Positions 3,304-14,682 are shown, counted from the stretch's first letter. The stretch is DNA of 64,000 nucleotides from Syntrophorhabdaceae bacterium (GCA_963665295.1 OY762209.1:2976001-3040000), one strand, 5' to 3'. Notes: generated by a model not told the origin, from the sequence alone. Numbers and translations are program-made.

Positions 3304-5196
3304 TTATATCTTTTTCTTGAGGACGCAAATCCCTTCGGCGGATTCCAACTCGTACCGCTTCGATTTCTTCAGTTCCGGCACCAGTTGCCCTATAGCTTGG
3401 GTTGAAATGATCACGAGCTTTCCCTCCTGTTTGAGGTAGGACATGCCTCTCTTGACGAAGGCTTTTGTCGCTTCGGCGAGAGGTAATTCCTCCTCCCACG
3501 AGTAGTTGAGGGAAGGCTGGACAAAGATGAAGTCGAAGGCGTTGCCCAGAAGGAAGGGGAACTCAATTTCCAGATGGAAGAACCCGTTTCTCTTGGCGAT
3601 GTCCTTCGATTCGGCGAACCATCCCTGGCTTCTTATCGAGGTCCATGCGGCGTCGTTGCCGTCAAGGGCAAAGAGCATCTCCTGGATGCGCTTGTTCTCC
3701 ACGGTCTTGGTGAAATAGGTTGCCGTCATCACATCCAGAAGGTCCCTGATCCGCTCCGTGTAGACCAGGAGTTTGATCTCCGTGGCACTTCTGAGTTCGA
3801 GGTCCTCTTTGATCTTGTCGGAGAGAGAGTAAAAGAGGGTATAAAGTTCCTTGAATTCCTGGATCACGTCTTTGGGGTGCTTGTTGAAGAGGGCCATCTG
3901 ATTGGTGGAATCGATTGCATTGACGATACTCTTGAGAGGCATCCCTATGAGGGGGTTGCCCAACCGGTAGTTTCTTCCGGAGAGGCCGAACCGGCTCTTC
4001 ATGGTGTTCTGTAGAATGTCGAAGGAGATGTGGGACCTCTCTATCCCGTAAAGGATGGTGTCGATAATGCACTTCTTCAGGGCCGATTCCTCTTCCCATT
4101 CAGCTCTGAAGGTATTCTTTTCCCTGTAGGGCAGTACGAAAGACAGGTACGCGAGGGCGTCTACCAACCGGGTGCTGAGGGCGCCGAAACCGGGGGTTAC
4201 GTCGAGTATTCTGAGGGCGAAAATATCCTCTTTCGTGTATCTCCTGCTCTTTTCTCCGAGGATTATTTCCTCGAGGTGAGGATTGACCTGGCTTCCTTTC
4301 TTGCTGAAAAGGTAGGAAAGTATGTCGGTATGGTCGTAACTGTTGATCAGACCCGATCCTTCAGAATCCTTCTCCCGGACCGTAATATTCTTTTCCTTCA
4401 GATAAGACTCGGTGGAGGGAAGGGGCCATGCGGAGAAAAATTGCCGGTATGCCCGTATGATCGTGGGGTAATAGTCGACTTTCTTCTTCTGGTCGCTCAA
4501 CTGTTTATCAAGGGAGACCCGCTTTTCCGTCAAGTCTTTGAGCAGTCTTTTCCGTTCCTCTTCGAGCATGTCGGGCAGGAGCTTTTTCAAACCCGTGCTC
4601 GAAAATATCTGGCAGAAAAGGTGGAGCGCCTGTTCATCGCCTTCGAAGACAGCTCCTTCCACATCGATCTCAATCATTCTTATTTCGAACTGGACAGGTC
4701 TCCGTATGAGGATCCAGTGCTTTCCGTTGGTCAGAATCCCCCAGGGAGTTCTGGACTTCTTCAGGAGGTAGAGGATCTGGTAAATGGGCATTTTGTTCTC
4801 GAATTCGAGATAGAAACCGCTTATGCCCTCATGGAGGTTCCTTCCGTATCTTTTCAGCAACACGATGCCCAGGGTGTTGGTGTAGTATTCCTGGGTGCCC
4901 CAGAGGTGTGAGTTGTTTACCCTTTCCTCTTCGGAGACGAAGAGGGCGACGTCGGGATTCTTGATGTGTTCTTCAAAGAACTTGGGTTTTGACTCGTACG
5001 TATGGCCGAGGCTCTTCAGCACGGGTTTTACGAGGTGGATCTCCGTGTGGATCTCGCTCGCGAATTTCTTAATCTCCTGAAACTTGGTCAACAGATCAAA
5101 GAGGGACGCGCCCAGGTCGGTATTTTCGGGGAGAGAGAGGAGCGCCTCGATACTTTCCAGGGAGAAAAGCGTATTTCTTAGAATATAGGATGACAT
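3304..5196 (-). CDS. Degenerate type IIG (Eco57I-like) restriction-modification-like protein, predicted catalytically inactive
   Basis: Family scaffold motifs in order (KPVLKSLG, PDVALF, WGILTNG, RILD...G.G, LYGIE, GNPLIG, FFHLEIEFP...FD), but E-x-K, DPACGSG and NPPY are replaced. Confidence 0.7.
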   Translation of the reverse strand: MSSYILRNTLFSLESIEALLSLPENTDLGASLFDLLTKFQEIKKFASEIHTEIHLVKPVLKSLGHTYESKPKFFEEHIKNPDVALFVSEEERVNNSHLWGTQEYYTNTLGIVLLKRYGRNLHEGISGFYLEFENKMPIYQILYLLKKSRTPWGILTNGKHWILIRRPVQFEIRMIEIDVEGAVFEGDEQALHLFCQIFSSTGLKKLLPDMLEEERKRLLKDLTEKRVSLDKQLSDQKKKVDYYPTIIRAYRQFFSAWPLPSTESYLKEKNITVREKDSEGSGLINSYDHTDILSYLFSKKGSQVNPHLEEIILGEKSRRYTKEDIFALRILDVTPGFGALSTRLVDALAYLSFVLPYREKNTFRAEWEEESALKKCIIDTILYGIERSHISFDILQNTMKSRFGLSGRNYRLGNPLIGMPLKSIVNAIDSTNQMALFNKHPKDVIQEFKELYTLFYSLSDKIKEDLELRSATEIKLLVYTERIRDLLDVMTATYFTKTVENKRIQEMLFALDGNDAAWTSIRSQGWFAESKDIAKRNGFFHLEIEFPFLLGNAFDFIFVQPSLNYSWEEELPLAEATKAFVKRGMSYLKQEGKLVIISTQAIGQLVPELKKSKRYELESAEGICVLKKKI

Positions 5197-5205
5197 TGCT
5201 TTGAA

Positions 5206-5234
5206 ATAATAGACGTTTGAAGGCGTTTAGTCAA
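5206..5234 (-). promoter_or_regulatory. sigma70-type promoter of the RM-like gene
   Basis: TTGACT (5234-5229), 17-nt spacer, TATTAT (5211-5206), 9 nt before ATG at 5196. Confidence 0.6.
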
Positions 5235-5472
5235 GGAGGGGCGCATCTTTTTCTTCCTTGTCCACACTCATTCTTTGGGTTCTCTCGATTTCCTTCAGTT
5301 TCATCCTTATTATCGTCACGAGACCGGCGATGCCTATCCAGAAGATCATAAGGGTCTGGAATATAATGAACCGGGCATACGGCGCGGTGGGCCTCACGTC
5401 TATTCTGTCTTCGGCCCAGAGAGCGCCCGCGGCGAGCAACATGGAAAAGGACAAGAGTATTATTCTTTTCAT
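5227..5472 (-). CDS. Small (81 aa) membrane protein at the end of the sdh-Rieske-cyt b operon
   Basis: GGAGG then ATG at 5472, 8 nt after the cyt b stop; signal-like N-terminus plus one TM helix (FIIFQTLMIFWIGIAGLVTII); no CxxCH. Confidence 0.7.
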   Translation of the reverse strand: MKRIILLSFSMLLAAGALWAEDRIDVRPTAPYARFIIFQTLMIFWIGIAGLVTIIRMKLKEIERTQRMSVDKEEKDAPLLD

Positions 5473-5480
5473 CCAGCCTC

Positions 5481-6545
5481 CTAGCTTAGAAAACCGATAA
5501 CCGTCATAACCACGAAGTAGGCGGTGTAGGCCAACCCGATCCACGTAAACAAGGGACTTCTCTGTCCGAGGCCTGATTTGCGGTCGAAGAGGGGGATGAG
5601 GAAGAAGAAGAGCATGCCTGACGTGATGAGAAGGATTGCCAGGGTCTCGCCGTTCATCCCCATGATCTCTCCGGGGAATAACTTGAGGGTCTGGAAGAGG
5701 AACAGGAAGTACCATTCGGGCTTGATGTTTTCCGGGGCAGGGGCAAGAGGGTCGGCCCTTTTCCCCAGTTCCGGCGGCAGAAGCGTCGCAAGGGTGACCA
5801 CGATCCCCAGCATGACAAGCCATACCATGAGGTCCTTATAAAAGAGATTCGGGAAAAAGCGGATCTCCCGGCGCGGTTCCTTTTGGAGCGATAGGGGCAC
5901 GCTCATCCCGTGGTACTGCACGAGGAGTACGTGGATGCCTATCAGGGCAAGGGTCACAAAAGGAAGAATTGAGACGTGAAAGGCGTAAAAGCGGGTGAGG
6001 GTCTCGCCCGTCACGTCTATGCCGCCCCTGAGGAAGGCCTTGATGAAACCCCCGACAAGGGGGAGATTCCCCGCGCCGCCCGTGGAGACCCTTACTGCGG
6101 CAAATGCCCGCTCGTCCCAAAGGAGAAGGTAACCACTGAGGCCGAAAAATATGGATATGGCCAGAAGAAGGAAACCTGAGAACCAGAGAAGCTCTCTCGG
6201 TTTCCTGTAGGATTTGAGGAGGAGGGTGCTGAACACATGGATAAAAAGGACCACAATGGCGATCTGAGCGCCCCAGTGATGGAGGGAGCGGAAAAACCAT
6301 CCCATATTCAGTTTCGTGACGATGTCGATTATGCTTTTGTATGCATATTCGAAGTGGGGCACATAGTAGAGCGCAAGGACCATACCTGTGATAAACTGGA
6401 GCACAAAGAGAAAGAGTGCGATCCCGCCCGTGTAATACCATATGTCGTATCTGTGGGAAGGCACGAATTTAGACGAGGCGAGCCGCTGGATCCCGGTTAA
6501 ATCGTACCGTTCCTCAAACCAGGTTCTAAGCCTTTGACGCTTCAA
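5481..6545 (-). CDS. Cytochrome b subunit of a Rieske/cyt b complex (unsplit)
   Basis: Four heme His in helices B and D, GYLLLWD, Qo motif PEWY; likely TTG start at 6545. Confidence 0.92.
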   Translation of the reverse strand: MKRQRLRTWFEERYDLTGIQRLASSKFVPSHRYDIWYYTGGIALFLFVLQFITGMVLALYYVPHFEYAYKSIIDIVTKLNMGWFFRSLHHWGAQIAIVVLFIHVFSTLLLKSYRKPRELLWFSGFLLLAISIFFGLSGYLLLWDERAFAAVRVSTGGAGNLPLVGGFIKAFLRGGIDVTGETLTRFYAFHVSILPFVTLALIGIHVLLVQYHGMSVPLSLQKEPRREIRFFPNLFYKDLMVWLVMLGIVVTLATLLPPELGKRADPLAPAPENIKPEWYFLFLFQTLKLFPGEIMGMNGETLAILLITSGMLFFFLIPLFDRKSGLGQRSPLFTWIGLAYTAYFVVMTVIGFLS

Positions 6546-6996
6546 CGTGTATCCCCTTCCTGGCAACGATCAGTTTTTTCCCTTCTACCTTCATTTCGAA
6601 AAATTCGAGCGGCTTCGGGGGAGGGCCCCCGATATTCCGGCCTGTCTCGTCAAACCACCCTTTGTGACATGGACAATAGAACTTCCTGTCTTCCGGTTTG
6701 TAGGTCACATTGCACTCCATGTGGGTGCAGACCCCTTTTAGGGCGAAGGTTTTGCCTTCCGCGTTCTTAAAGACTAACCCGAGTTTCCCTCCCCATGGGA
6801 AGGGCTTCACCGAATTGTCGGGAATATCGAGGAAGTCAGCGGCATTGAGCACCACAAAATCGGGTTCCTTGCCAAGGGTGGGGAAGGCGAACCTCGCGAG
6901 GGCATAAAGACTTCCCGACGAAAAAGCGACAAGCCACCCCCCGAACAAGGTATTGAGGAAGGTTCTCCGGGTTACGAGGGAATAATCAAGTTTCAT
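6526..6996 (-). CDS. Rieske [2Fe-2S] protein
   Basis: Tat-like RRTFL plus TM helix; box I CTHMEC, box II CPCHKG; GPPPKPL. Confidence 0.92.
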   Translation of the reverse strand: MKLDYSLVTRRTFLNTLFGGWLVAFSSGSLYALARFAFPTLGKEPDFVVLNAADFLDIPDNSVKPFPWGGKLGLVFKNAEGKTFALKGVCTHMECNVTYKPEDRKFYCPCHKGWFDETGRNIGGPPPKPLEFFEMKVEGKKLIVARKGIHVEASKA

Positions 6997-7726
6997 CCTT
7001 CCTCCTCCCCCGGAACCGGTATTTGAGAAGGCTTTTTCTGAGGCCCACTATGGAGTCCGTGGGTCTCACATCCTTCGGGCACGCGTCGATACACCTGAGC
7101 ATGGTATCACACCCCCATACTCCCTGCTCGCTGTCGATCTCTTCGAGGAGACGTTCCGGCCTTTCGTCTCTGGAATCGAGGATGAACCTTTCGAGTTTGG
7201 CAAGGCTGGCAGGGCCCATATAATCGGGGTTACGCGAAAGCACGGGGCAGGAACCATAACACGACGCGCAGAGGATGCAGTTCACGAACTGGTCTGTGCG
7301 CCTTTTCTCTTCCTCGCTCTGGGGTAGCTCCTTTTCGGGGTCACTCTGTTTCCTTATGAGCCATGGCCTCACTTTCTCGTACATATTCCAGAAAGGCGTC
7401 AGGTCCACCACCAGGTCTTTGATAATCCCGAAATTCGGCAAGGGTTCCAGTATGATCGTGTTCTTGCCGAAGGAGGCTACCTGGGTTCTGCACGCGAGGT
7501 CTATCCTGCCGTTTATCACCATCGCACAGGACCCGCAGACCGCCGACCTGCACGAAGACCTGAACGAAAGGGTTCCGTCGATCTCGTCCCTTATCCTTAT
7601 GAGTACGGCGAGTACCGTGAGACCCGGGATCACTTTTATCCGATAGGCGGCGAACCGGGGTTCCCGGTCCGGTTCCCGTGCATCAAATCTCAGGATCTTG
7701 AAAGTGTAAGTATCTTCCGTGATCAA
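6986..7726 (-). CDS. sdhB: Succinate dehydrogenase/fumarate reductase Fe-S subunit
   Basis: SCRSAVCGSC...LAC, CILCASCYGSCP, CDTMLRCIDACP. Confidence 0.93.
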   Translation of the reverse strand: MITEDTYTFKILRFDAREPDREPRFAAYRIKVIPGLTVLAVLIRIRDEIDGTLSFRSSCRSAVCGSCAMVINGRIDLACRTQVASFGKNTIILEPLPNFGIIKDLVVDLTPFWNMYEKVRPWLIRKQSDPEKELPQSEEEKRRTDQFVNCILCASCYGSCPVLSRNPDYMGPASLAKLERFILDSRDERPERLLEEIDSEQGVWGCDTMLRCIDACPKDVRPTDSIVGLRKSLLKYRFRGRRKDET

Positions 7727-9426
7727 TATTTCCTCTCCATGGGAGCATAGTTCGTTATCACTACGTCCTTAAAGGAGATGGACGGCGTTCCGTCATCACC
7801 TATTTTCGCAATGGTGTGCTTGAGCCAATTCGCATCGTCCCGTTGAGGGAAATCTCTGCGGAAATGGGCGCCCCTGCTTTCTTCCCGCAGGAGGGCCCCG
7901 AGGGCTATGGTGTGGGCGACCTCCAGCATGTATTCGAGTTCCAGCGCGTTCATAAGCTCGTAATTCATGTGCAGGGAGGGGGACGAAACATGGACGAGCT
8001 TATATCTCTCCTTGATCCCGGAGATATCTGCAAGGGCCTTTTCGATCTCCTCTTTCTTTCTGAAGATCCCTACGCAGGCGCTCATGGTTCTGCTGAGGTC
8101 AAGCTGTATCTTGAAGGGCCGCTCATTACCTTCGGTGAAAAGCCGCCGGACCTTCTCTTCTATGTCCGCCTTTCGCCGCATGAGAAGGCCTTCGTCGGGT
8201 CGAGGGGGGTCTTCCTGGAGGTACCGCGCTATGGAGAAGGATGCCAGCTTGCCGAAGACAATGGTATCGAGCAACGAATTGCCGCCGAGCCTGTTCGCGC
8301 CGTGAACGCTCACGCACGCGCACTCTCCTGCCGCGTAAAACCCCCTGATTCCGGTCTCGCACCTCTCGTTGGTATCGATGCCTCCCATGGAGTAATGCTG
8401 GCACGGCATTATGGGGATCGGCTCGCGCACGGGGTCGATGCCGATGAAATCGATGCATATCTTTCTGATGCCGGGGAGTTTCTCCTGGATCTTCTTCTCT
8501 CCCAGATGCCTGAGGTCGAGTTTTATGTACTTGCCTAAAGGATGCTCGAATCCCCTTCCTTCGTCGATCTCCGTCTGTATGCACCTCGACACGATATCCC
8601 TGGGTGCGAGTTCCATAGCGGCGGGGACATATCTCTGCATGAACCTTTCATCGAGGTTGTTTACGAGGTAGCCGCCTTCACCCCTGCACGCCTCTGTCAT
8701 AAGGATATTTGTGCCTATGAGGGCGGTGGGGTGAAACTGGACGAATTCCATATCCTTTATGGGTGCGCCCGCCTTGTAGGCGGCGCCTATGCCGCTTCCC
8801 GTATTGATAAGGGCGTTCGTGGAATAGTAATATACCCTCCCGTATCCGCCCGTGGCGAAGAGGGTTGTCTTCGCCAGGATGGGCACGATCTCGCCCTTGA
8901 GAAGATCGAAGGCTATGACCCCGTGGCATTGCCCGTCCCGGGCGACGAGGTCCACGACGAACCATTCGGGATAGACCCTGACGCCCTTTGACACCGCCCT
9001 CTCGTAGAGGGTGTTGAGGAGCACATGTCCCGTGATGTCGGCGGAATAACAGGTCCTCGGATATCCTGCCCCTCCGAAGGGCCTCTGGGCGATGGACCTG
9101 TCGGGAAACCGGCTGAAAGGACAGCCCCAGTGCTCCATTTCATAGACGATCTTCGGCGCTTCCCTGCACATCAGTTCCACGGCGTCCTGGTCGGAGAGGT
9201 AGTCGCTCCCCTTCACCGTATCGAAAGCGTGCTTCTCCCATGTGTCGTCCTTCCCGTCCGGGTTGTTTGCGAGGGCCGCATTGATACCACCCTGGGCCGC
9301 GATCGAATGGGACCTGATGGGATGGACCTTGGACAGGATTGCAACATCGTAGGTTTCGCACAAGCCCACTGCTGCCCGGAGCCCTGCGAGGCCTCCGCCG
9401 ACGATGAGAATGTCATGACGAAGCAT
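7723..9426 (-). CDS. sdhA: Succinate dehydrogenase/fumarate reductase flavoprotein
   Basis: GGGLAG, RSHSIAAQGG (covalent FAD His), QFHPT, EACRGEGG, ELAPRD, HYSMGG, HGANRLGGNSL. Confidence 0.95.
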   Translation of the reverse strand: MLRHDILIVGGGLAGLRAAVGLCETYDVAILSKVHPIRSHSIAAQGGINAALANNPDGKDDTWEKHAFDTVKGSDYLSDQDAVELMCREAPKIVYEMEHWGCPFSRFPDRSIAQRPFGGAGYPRTCYSADITGHVLLNTLYERAVSKGVRVYPEWFVVDLVARDGQCHGVIAFDLLKGEIVPILAKTTLFATGGYGRVYYYSTNALINTGSGIGAAYKAGAPIKDMEFVQFHPTALIGTNILMTEACRGEGGYLVNNLDERFMQRYVPAAMELAPRDIVSRCIQTEIDEGRGFEHPLGKYIKLDLRHLGEKKIQEKLPGIRKICIDFIGIDPVREPIPIMPCQHYSMGGIDTNERCETGIRGFYAAGECACVSVHGANRLGGNSLLDTIVFGKLASFSIARYLQEDPPRPDEGLLMRRKADIEEKVRRLFTEGNERPFKIQLDLSRTMSACVGIFRKKEEIEKALADISGIKERYKLVHVSSPSLHMNYELMNALELEYMLEVAHTIALGALLREESRGAHFRRDFPQRDDANWLKHTIAKIGDDGTPSISFKDVVITNYAPMERKY

Positions 9427-9429
9427 GGG

Positions 9430-9735
9430 TTATGTCATCTTGAAATAGATGATCAGCAAGGCCGCGGAGATGATCGATGCGGTTACCTGGGACAGCCAGA
9501 ACAACCTCTTTTCCTTTCTGTACCCAAGGTCTATGGCTATGGTTCTGAGGCCATAGATGCTGTGGAAGGTGAAGAGGACCATGAGCAGCACATCGAGGGT
9601 GGGCTGCCGGTGCAGGCTTAAGGCCCAGTCGGGTTTCGTCTCCTTCGTGAAGAGAAAGAAGCCGGAAAACACCTTTATTCCCACGAGGGCTATGAGAAAG
9701 ACCCCACTGATCCTGTGAAAAAGCCATATGAACAT
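9430..9735 (-). CDS. sdhC: Succinate dehydrogenase membrane anchor (single 3-TM subunit)
   Basis: HRISG and FHSIYGLRTIAID motifs, three hydrophobic segments, 3 nt before sdhA. Confidence 0.8.
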   Translation of the reverse strand: MFIWLFHRISGVFLIALVGIKVFSGFFLFTKETKPDWALSLHRQPTLDVLLMVLFTFHSIYGLRTIAIDLGYRKEKRLFWLSQVTASIISAALLIIYFKMT

Positions 9736-13007: not shown

Positions 13008-14682
13008 GTCTCCATCCGGAAACCCCCATTTTCGAGCAAGCCCCCGGTCTATTGCCAGGGTGGGCGCTCAGCCGTCCGGTGATTCCGTCATCCCTTTTCG
13101 GATTTCACTCCATCGGGCCCGTTTTCCCCAGAGTCAGGGCGTAGCTCACCCTTGTCCCCTTGAGAAAATAGTCTTCTCTCATCATGAGGCCATCCTGATG
13201 CGGGCGATGACGAGAAGATTGTAGGAGACGATACTGGAGAGCACGTACCGGGCAAACCCTTCCCATCCTGTCCACGTCGCCCGGTCAAGGCCGAAGGACC
13301 GTTTCAATGTGGAGATGCCTGCTTCAATGCCCGCCCGGAAGTTCCTGAGCTTCTTGTAGACCCAGGTGCTCTTTGCCATGTCGAGGATGGAGAGCCCCCT
13401 CTTTCTGGCGAAGACGGCATCCTTGATATGGTTCTCCTTCGCATAGGCGAGGTTCTCTTTTGAGGCAAAGCCCCCGTCGGCCGTCACTTGGCGAGGCATC
13501 TTCCCGTACCACTCCTTATGCTGCTCAAGGAGGGATTGATACTGGTCGGTATCAGCGGGGTTGCCCGGGACGATGAGACACCCGATGATCATGGTGGAGC
13601 GTCCTCCTGTAAGGAACACCTTATGGCCGTACTCGGTATCCCTCCTCCCCTTCACGATGATGTCCGTGTGGTCCTCGAAGAAAGAGACGATCTTCTCGGA
13701 GGCGGGGACCTTCTCGTTCTTGAAGACTCTCCGGTCGGTCTGGTCGATGACCTTCCCGAGTATGCCCACGGCGCGTTCAAGTCTCCGGGCAAGCTCGCGG
13801 GCAGCGAAGGTGTCCATGAGATTATCGCCCTCGTAGGGGATGAGTTCGGTGATCGCCTCTTCGGCATATCCCTTCACGAGATTCGCATAGTGGAGGAGGT
13901 CCTTGTAGGCGCTCTTCCGTGTTCTGTCGTTCTTTGCATTGAGGATCGTCATGAGCTTCTTCTTGGCTACTCTCCTATGGTCACTGTAGGCATACCGGGG
14001 CACGGGAGCAAGCTCCTTCCCTTCGGTGAGTAACCGGGTAATGACGCGGATGCCGTCCACGATGAGCGATGAGTCGGTGGGGTGGTGGATGTTGGTCTCC
14101 ACCGTGGTGGAGTCTACTCTTACCACGCGGCCGGATTCTATCTTCTCCTTTACCGCGTAGCGGTTTACTTCCTGAATGATCGCCTCCCAGGTTTCTTCCC
14201 GTATCGCCTTTATGTTCTCCTGAAGGACCGATTTGGAGGGGTACTGTCCCATCTCCAATCTCGCGAAACTGCGGAGTGCGTCGGAGTCTTCCATGTGGAA
14301 GGCAAGCTCTTCATACGTCAGTTGGCGGTACTGCTTGAGTATGGCGATCCGGAGCACCTGTTCCGCGGTGAGCCCCTCTCTTCCCGTGTCGGTGCGACAG
14401 AAGGAGGTCATATCCCCGAAGACCAGATCCAGAAGGCGGGGATTGGCGTCTATGACCTTTGACATCTCCTGAAGCTCCTTTACGATAGAATGGCGCATCA
14501 TGGGGGAGAAGAGGCCTGTCTGGGGGTTGAATTTCTGGCGCATTCCGGAATCCTTTCTGAAGGCGTTAGGTAATGATATTGCCTTGTTACAACCATATTG
14601 TACCTCAGATGAGGGGCGAAACTCCAGGGGAATGTGGGGATTTGGGCAAATATTTCATGGGGTTAGGTTTCCGGATGGAGAC
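13008..14682 (-). mobile_element. Insertion sequence, 1675 bp (ISNCY/IS5-like DDE)
   Basis: Perfect 17-bp terminal inverted repeats GTCTCCATCCGGAAACC (13008-13024, 14666-14682); direct repeat TAATTA at 13002-13007 and 14683-14688. Confidence 0.95.
13182..14543 (-). CDS. DDE transposase (ISNCY-like)
   Basis: RVDSTTVETNIHHPTDS, TADGGF, RNFRAGIEAGISTLKRSFGL; intact 453 aa. Confidence 0.93.
   Translation of the reverse strand: MRQKFNPQTGLFSPMMRHSIVKELQEMSKVIDANPRLLDLVFGDMTSFCRTDTGREGLTAEQVLRIAILKQYRQLTYEELAFHMEDSDALRSFARLEMGQYPSKSVLQENIKAIREETWEAIIQEVNRYAVKEKIESGRVVRVDSTTVETNIHHPTDSSLIVDGIRVITRLLTEGKELAPVPRYAYSDHRRVAKKKLMTILNAKNDRTRKSAYKDLLHYANLVKGYAEEAITELIPYEGDNLMDTFAARELARRLERAVGILGKVIDQTDRRVFKNEKVPASEKIVSFFEDHTDIIVKGRRDTEYGHKVFLTGGRSTMIIGCLIVPGNPADTDQYQSLLEQHKEWYGKMPRQVTADGGFASKENLAYAKENHIKDAVFARKRGLSILDMAKSTWVYKKLRNFRAGIEAGISTLKRSFGLDRATWTGWEGFARYVLSSIVSYNLLVIARIRMAS

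Follow-up and report, generated by a model that had tools for sequence, protein, structure and literature searches.

The window analysed here is a stretch of 64,000 nucleotides from a Syntrophorhabdaceae bacterium. On its minus strand lies an uninterrupted ORF for a 630-aa protein, as had been claimed in an earlier note on this DNA (Table 1). The gene is preceded by its own promoter, which had been read as TTGACT-17-TATTAT and is present. A single site of this form is not above chance (2 found against 1.4 expected from shuffles). The pattern TTGAC(T/A)-N16-18-TAnnnT is conserved upstream of 58 of 62 orthologues, also where the small ORF that normally lies upstream is missing. A Shine-Dalgarno site is absent ahead of the gene, and a word resembling one was found ahead of 1 of the 62 orthologues. 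From the position of the promoter and the absent Shine-Dalgarno site, the mRNA is predicted to be near-leaderless. In most loci of family f1, the -35 box (window 5227-5234) overlaps the Leu-Asp-stop codons of the small ORF. At two loci of family f3 without the gene, no promoter pattern of this type was found.

Table 1. Features of the type IIG-derived gene and its immediate surroundings, in window coordinates
Feature	Position	Strand	Basis or remark
Type IIG-derived 630-aa protein, single-copy core gene of Syntrophorhabdia	3304..5196	-	ORF, homologue and genome searches
Sigma-70-type promoter	5206..5234	-	TTGACT 5234-5229, TATTAT 5211-5206; 9 nt before ATG
Small membrane-type ORF upstream, outside the protein	5227..5472	-	Last codons Leu-Asp-stop carry the -35 box; no Pfam family
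PD-(D/E)xK nuclease-like core, residues 39-180	4657..5082	-	42 of 142 columns at least 97% conserved; best-conserved part
P81-D82 of the nuclease motif, kept	4951..4956	-	D in 76/76
L113-L114-K115, in place of E-A-K	4852..4860	-	Position 113 never acidic
Helical connector, shortened, residues 181-284	4345..4656	-	Least conserved part
Class I (gamma-type) methyltransferase fold, residues 285-630	3307..4344	-	Ends after the last strand; no target-recognition domain
Motif X, likely degenerate, residues 282-289	4330..4353	-	HMM alignment and structural matches; in one subclade a second clamp-like pentapeptide from 289
Motif I, DVTPGFG (332-338), SAM-binding loop	4183..4203	-	Largely kept
Motif II, YGIERS	4033..4050	-	Acidic E386 kept
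Motif III, GNPL	3949..3960	-	Kept
QMALF (433-437), predicted beta-clamp-binding motif	3886..3900	-	Low-confidence loop, pLDDT 65
QPSL (560-563), in place of catalytic motif IV NPPY/W	3508..3519	-	

The neighbours are of the housekeeping type, as the earlier note had it, both here and in other loci. Upstream, window 5227-9735 holds succinate-dehydrogenase-like genes, then a Rieske protein, cytochrome b and the small membrane-type ORF. No cytochrome c1 was recognised in this cluster, which is conserved in most loci, including those of f3. Downstream, in convergent orientation, lie a metallo-beta-lactamase-fold gene and an epimerase gene. Across 70 loci, cytochrome b and the small ORF are found in 55, the beta-lactamase-fold gene in 31 and recO in 26, and in family f4 the gene sits beside other housekeeping neighbours. 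The repair gene recO is convergent and directly downstream in these 26 loci (L072/L074-type), probably through rearrangement. No restriction-modification (RM) or defence gene was recognised by eye among the 45 commonest neighbour clusters, and no partner gene was found to travel with the IIG-derived gene across families. In two f3 genomes, the empty site is clean, the small ORF directly abutting the beta-lactamase-fold gene. Elsewhere in the window, a 453-aa ORF at 13182-14543 looks transposase-like from its sequence.

Searches of Pfam and NCBIfam with the 630-aa protein gave no match, and a sequence search of the PDB returned nothing for the protein and only noise for its profile. The family profile was made from the best 120 of 272 homologues found (identity 50-74%). 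Outside the class, it gave only weak partial matches, in 13 of 386 genomes of the phylum. Nine of these loci were fetched, one of them truncated by a contig end, and they carry E-[AG]-K (9/9), DPAMGSG (eight) and NPP[YW] (eight). With six longer proteins, they form an alignment of 15 intact-motif relatives, to which the family was matched by hhalign at 99.95% (E 1.4e-38, 583 columns). Using the AlphaFold model of the protein (pLDDT 88.9), the top ten Foldseek rows are PglX/BrxX, DrdV and BpuSI with low TM-scores, PglX/BrxX being the best match (E 2.9e-5). The VIA structural search recovered DrdV (Z 13.8, rmsd 13.9, 390 residues, over residues 25-630) and LlaBIII (Z 14.1, rmsd 4.1, 257 residues). 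On the core alone, comparable scores are reached by unrelated class I methyltransferases (TrmR, Z 14.4). In the Atlas search, two unnamed clusters come first, followed by N6_Mtase/Eco57I/MmeI clusters, and residues 1-235 by themselves retrieve HSDR_N/MmeI_N clusters.

Profile and structure thus both match the type IIG family, and the structural motifs WGILTNG, GNPLIG and FFHLEIEFP, said earlier to persist, are all present. As in type IIG enzymes, a PD-(D/E)xK domain and a gamma methyltransferase are united in one chain, and the protein descends from a type IIG restriction-modification enzyme of the single-chain kind. The nearest such enzymes are of the Eco57I/BpuSI/DrdV kind (L125-L133 and P0121-P0126; about 1100-1500 aa; Pfam Eco57I/N6_Mtase; three loci cut by contig ends). 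Common to both are the order of nuclease, helical connector and gamma methyltransferase with helical insert, and also PD, K, Q, WGILTNG, motifs I-III and FFH-E-EFP. Unlike these enzymes, the protein has no catalytic Glu and no NPPY, its connector is shortened, and the last-strand loop and target-recognition domain are gone. It is also core and vertically inherited, whereas the relatives outside the class are patchy. With three defining features missing from its sequence, the protein itself is not a type IIG enzyme.

In the methyltransferase fold, the losses appear confined to the catalytic and DNA-contacting motifs, and the SAM pocket seems to be preserved. The earlier reading of motif I as DVTPGFG stands, but the catalytic loss that had been placed there does not, the motif being largely intact. 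Motifs I-III of type IIG enzymes can be followed in the sequence: D332 is kept in 75/77 orthologues, G338, E386 and G413 each in 77/77, and the G413-N414 pair is kept. Variation occurs at G336, which is Asn in 19/77, and at E386, which is lost in 4 of the 83 proteins of a second set found from an f4 clade. KKGSQVNP, previously taken for motif X, is a variable loop. Motif X is more likely INSYDH (284-289), where the HMM alignment places it and where the structural matches to methyltransferases start (283-290). Hhalign disagrees and sets KKGSQ against motif X; the motif is degenerate under either placement. Motif IV does read QPSL, as had been claimed, and is mostly QP[AS]L across the orthologues (position 560 is Q in 71, R in four, C in one and K in one; position 563 is Leu in 63/77). 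A restored NPP(Y/F/W) was found in none of 203 proteins scanned, and methyl transfer to DNA by this protein is very unlikely. There is also no room for a target-recognition domain, in line with the earlier note: 70 residues follow motif IV here, against 363-630 in complete active relatives, both the entire domain and the loop leading into the last strand having been deleted. No type IIG specificity module was recognised, either within the chain or as a subunit encoded by a neighbouring gene.

A kept SAM pocket in a fold that has lost its catalytic motif could point to a scaffold or regulator outside repair, that is, a pseudo-enzyme with a part in replication control or nucleoid organisation, acting as a protein binder or SAM sensor and perhaps sitting on the clamp. 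The lowest regional dN/dS (0.084, residues 321-420) falls in this fold, motifs I-III are kept, SAM is an allosteric activator of type IIG enzymes (PMC4081073, in the text available), and the new invariant surface loops described below could form a protein interface. Against this, the old catalytic pocket of the nuclease is among the invariant residues, positions 336 and 386 vary as given above, and no partner gene co-travels across families. Moreover, the class-wide repair gap would be left unexplained. This explanation is the best placed of the alternatives, and it is still rather unlikely.

The nuclease-like domain was described in the earlier note as having PD and reading LLK in place of E-x-K, and P81-D82 and L113-L114-K115 are indeed seen. 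In overlapping sets of 120, 77 and 83 proteins, position 113 is never acidic; its equivalent in the 15 active relatives is Glu in 14 and Asp in one. The complete nuclease catalytic set of type IIG enzymes (E, PD, E-x-K) is thus missing, and canonical cleavage by the protein is unlikely. E48, E52, D82, K115, R116 and Q140 are invariant (76/76), and position 70 is Lys in 76/76 orthologues and in 79/83 of the second set, where all 15 actives have Gln or Glu. These invariant residues and the fixed K70 indicate that the nuclease pocket is still under selection. In addition, E68 and E133 are new invariant acids, and two new conserved, aromatic-rich loops, YESKPKFF and GFYLEFEN, have appeared. The earlier wording "doubly catalytically dead" follows from motifs only.

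An active but atypical nuclease, tethered to the clamp in an EndoMS-like role and built from E48, E52 and D82 with K70 and K115 after the beta-3 Glu was dropped, has to be weighed here. The catalytic residues of BpuSI are E21, D60, E76 and K78 (PMC3185434, available part), and three of the four have kept counterparts in E48, D82 and K115. It has also been described that catalytic residues can migrate within the PD-(D/E)xK fold (PMC3424549, available part). The Glu migrations of the Cfr10I and EcoO109I types, as described in the available part of that paper, were not seen: position 80 varies, and the relevant site in the second core helix holds Gln (Q140 in 77/77). E52 is present in 10 of the 15 actives and is hence ancestral, not compensatory. 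Together with the absence of any acid at position 113, this makes an atypical nuclease improbable, a shade more so than the scaffold or regulator.

The gene was found in 92 of 96 Syntrophorhabdia genomes: 67/68 of f1 plus genome G000, 2/2 of f2, 22/22 of f4 and 0/3 of f3. Syntrophorhabdus aromaticivorans UI has an orthologue (L095). As controls, rpoB was found in 93 of the same genomes, dnaN in 94 and Methylase_S in 53, the last being patchy (f2 0/2, f4 6/22). A gene tree of 23 genomes reproduces the rpoB groupings. For the 34 unsaturated pairs among 62 complete coding sequences, dN/dS has a median of 0.127 (range 0.09-0.28); 10 non-overlapping pairs give 0.129, and residues 1-200 have 0.09. 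The length of the orthologues is constant across 42-73% identity. The gene is inherited vertically, class-wide and under purifying selection, and orthologues are thus neither absent nor decaying. For f3, the gene may have been lost, or f3 may have split off before the gain (tree support 47). In viral contigs, 63 pattern matches yielded no confirmed relative, and no RNA holder was listed; plasmids gave 37 weak records, of which the ten listed are haloarchaeal methylase genes at 23-25%. The domesticated pseudo-enzyme proposed earlier is supported by these data, none of its three computable refutations having succeeded, and the gene is almost certainly domesticated.

The same data bear on three further explanations. 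A decoy that absorbs anti-restriction proteins of phages, or a sensor for them, was an option of the earlier note, and the fold is related to BrxX/PglX, which has been solved in complex with Ocr; PADLOC also gave two marginal matches (E about 3e-4). The option loses ground on the universal single copy, vertical descent, slow evolution and housekeeping neighbours, set against the scattered occurrence of RM parts in these genomes, and on the absence from viral contigs. No effector gene was recognised nearby, and the DNA-recognition surfaces that DNA mimics engage are largely deleted here. A role of this kind is thus quite improbable. Less probable again is an inactive subunit of a heteromeric RM-type methyltransferase with its catalytic or specificity partner encoded elsewhere. 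In type IIG systems the specificity module may be a subunit of its own (PMC4081073, available text), and this genome encodes type I M and S subunits besides a separate gamma-type methyltransferase, but no partner is linked, and the IIG-derived gene is present in all of f2 and f4, where Methylase_S is scarce or absent. Recent inactivation with decay still to come can be dismissed: the gene is in pieces in a few assemblies (e.g. G028, G050, G077, G078, G086 and G091), but five of these six also break rpoB or dnaN, which indicates sequencing errors, and low dN/dS in all 34 pairs and constant length argue against it.

The methyltransferase fold also carries a clamp-type motif. Q433, L436 and F437 are invariant in the best 120 of the 272 homologues found (QxxLF in 120/120) with variable flanks, and the loop also occurs as QLSLF, QLDLF and QLGLF. 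Among genome-derived orthologues, QxxLF is found in 65/77 and the strict form in 48/76; for Q[LMIV]xLF, the chance level in this genome is 0.021 per 630 aa. Clamp-binding motifs follow the consensus Q-aliphatic-x-[L/M]-[F/L], and examples within internal loops have been described (PMC11139829, available part). Sequence and model place such a consensus motif in an exposed loop, as in clamp clients. The loop motif is missing from 12/77 orthologues, and 11 of those belong to one f4 clade with Q-x-D-[LIV]-[FL] at 289. In the second set of 83 proteins, the loop motif is present in 47, missing in 34 and unscored in two, and 34 of the 36 motif-missing or unscored proteins carry the 289 word; in three sequences, the loop is deleted. 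The 289 word is a weak candidate for a rescue of the lost motif, being confined to a single clade and lying in a predicted helix. Since three of seven scored active relatives have the loop motif, it is probably ancestral and inherited. In the intact-motif type IIG enzymes L125, L132 and L133, the equivalent loop reads QLGLF, QLTIF and QIGVF, respectively. Searches of the open-access literature, without supplements, found no account of clamp motifs or docking in type IIG enzymes. The QMALF loop probably docks the protein on the beta sliding clamp, and the earlier option of a replisome-associated factor gains support from this motif.

A second class-wide feature concerns mismatch repair. In the 96 class genomes, MutS_I, MutL over the cut-off and NucS_N were each found 0 times, and control genomes behaved as expected. 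MutS_I is present in 369/386 genomes of the phylum outside the class (369/401 overall; 0/15 of the class). For MutL, 84 weak matches in the class stay within roughly the first 90 positions of the model. NucS_C matches occur in 62/96 class genomes (35 over the cut-off, none in G000) and are not counted as NucS because NucS_N matched none. G000 has one MutS_V gene (764 aa) without MutS_I, which was read as MutS2. The class-wide absence of MutS1, MutL and NucS is notable whatever the IIG-derived gene does. Family f3, which has no copy of the gene, is also without MutS1 and NucS_N, and the two genomes of f5 have no IIG-derived gene, no MutS1 and no NucS_C match. Loss of MutS therefore does not require the gene. 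The f5 genomes, G096 and G141, are 98%-complete, 1.9 Mb in size, without a match to the IIG profiles, and show an ordinary transition ratio at rpoB.

The transition/transversion ratio at fourfold sites was considered as evidence for repair and rejected. It is 0.68-2.25 in ten close pairs with the gene, which are not separable from the f5 pair without it (1.79); MutS-bearing g44 pairs give 2.4-3.6, and f3 pairs are saturated. The spectrum of an endoMS-null strain, with 526 of 530 mutations being transitions (PMC6159521, available text), is far from that of the gene-bearing pairs. EndoMS/NucS is a clamp-dependent mismatch endonuclease of MutS-less lineages and can replace MutS/MutL (PMC6159521, PMC5290159 and PMC6159515, in the parts available), and further mismatch-repair pathways "cannot be discarded" (PMC5290159, likewise).

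Taken together, the protein may be a clamp-tethered, replication-coupled genome-maintenance factor derived from a type IIG enzyme, to which a probability of roughly 0.45 is given. In the descent from a type IIG enzyme, the E of E-x-K, NPPY, the target-recognition domain and the loop preceding the last strand were lost. The methyltransferase fold would now serve as a scaffold for the clamp-binding loop and might still hold SAM. Docking of the QMALF loop on the beta sliding clamp would bring the nuclease-like domain to DNA behind the fork, where the remodelled pocket (E48, E52, D82, K70, K115, R116, Q140) and the YESKPKFF and GFYLEFEN loops could grip DNA without canonical cutting. The nuclease-like domain would then bind and check newly replicated DNA. 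Clamp binding, SAM binding, the scaffold role and the DNA grip are all inferred. A counterpoint to the DNA-checking role is that the DNA-binding surface is small once the target-recognition domain is lost, and that residues 1-200 carry more acidic than basic side chains (26 against 21). More speculatively, mismatched or otherwise distorted DNA could be the substrate, in which case the protein would substitute for the absent mismatch repair, and the cut would come from a partner or from atypical chemistry. Mismatch repair of a third kind, in which a disarmed type IIG enzyme was recruited after MutS/MutL loss as a clamp-loaded mismatch sensor or nicking factor, is unlikely as matters stand; the link to mismatch repair rests on one lineage.

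Several known systems resemble the proposed genome-maintenance factor in part. EndoMS/NucS has a restriction-like nuclease fold. It is clamp-dependent and belongs to lineages without MutS/MutL (PMC6159521, PMC5290159, available parts), and the class here likewise lacks both, the protein carrying a clamp motif by sequence. Unlike EndoMS/NucS, the protein has no NucS_N or NucS_C domain in Pfam, its nuclease motif is incomplete, and it is fused to a pseudo-methyltransferase. DnmA of Bacillus subtilis is another RM relic, of the MmeI kind, which gives no phage defence and localises near the replisome (PMC9973331, available text). Unlike the protein here, DnmA is an active sequence-specific methyltransferase, and the clamp is unmentioned in the available text of PMC9973331. 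The protein also differs from BREX PglX/BrxX, as it has no NCBIfam BREX match, no recognised brx cluster and no catalytic motif. In METTL14, a catalytically degenerate fold is retained as a scaffold. The same holds for RecC, an inactive PD-(D/E)xK homologue (PMC3424549, available part). Both RecC and METTL14 act inside known complexes, whereas the protein here is without a known partner.

No description of this protein family was found in the open-access literature, supplements and subscription papers aside. It is a real, strongly conserved and uncharacterised protein, unannotated in Pfam and NCBIfam. How bacteria without MutS/MutL or NucS control their mutation rate is an open question. As a class lacking all three carries one lineage-specific, restriction-derived core protein with a clamp motif, the question becomes testable with purified proteins. 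Even without a role in repair, the gene clearly exemplifies the conversion of a defence enzyme into a housekeeping gene, and the clamp-type motif in some active relatives suggests a route by which such enzymes might reach freshly replicated DNA.

Other clamp-like words were met in the same survey. An ORF with QITLF, considered as DnaE, was rejected, as it encodes an RHS-repeat protein, and a 571-aa ORF with QMSLF has 12 copies elsewhere in the genome. At L231:1684-4731 (G000:C1, about 3.50 Mb), a TIGR00375-like PHP protein (below the cut-off), which we take to be EndoQ-like, lies next to a UvrD/PcrA-type helicase; the two end in QMVLL and QMKLF, respectively, and form a candidate clamp-linked repair pair.
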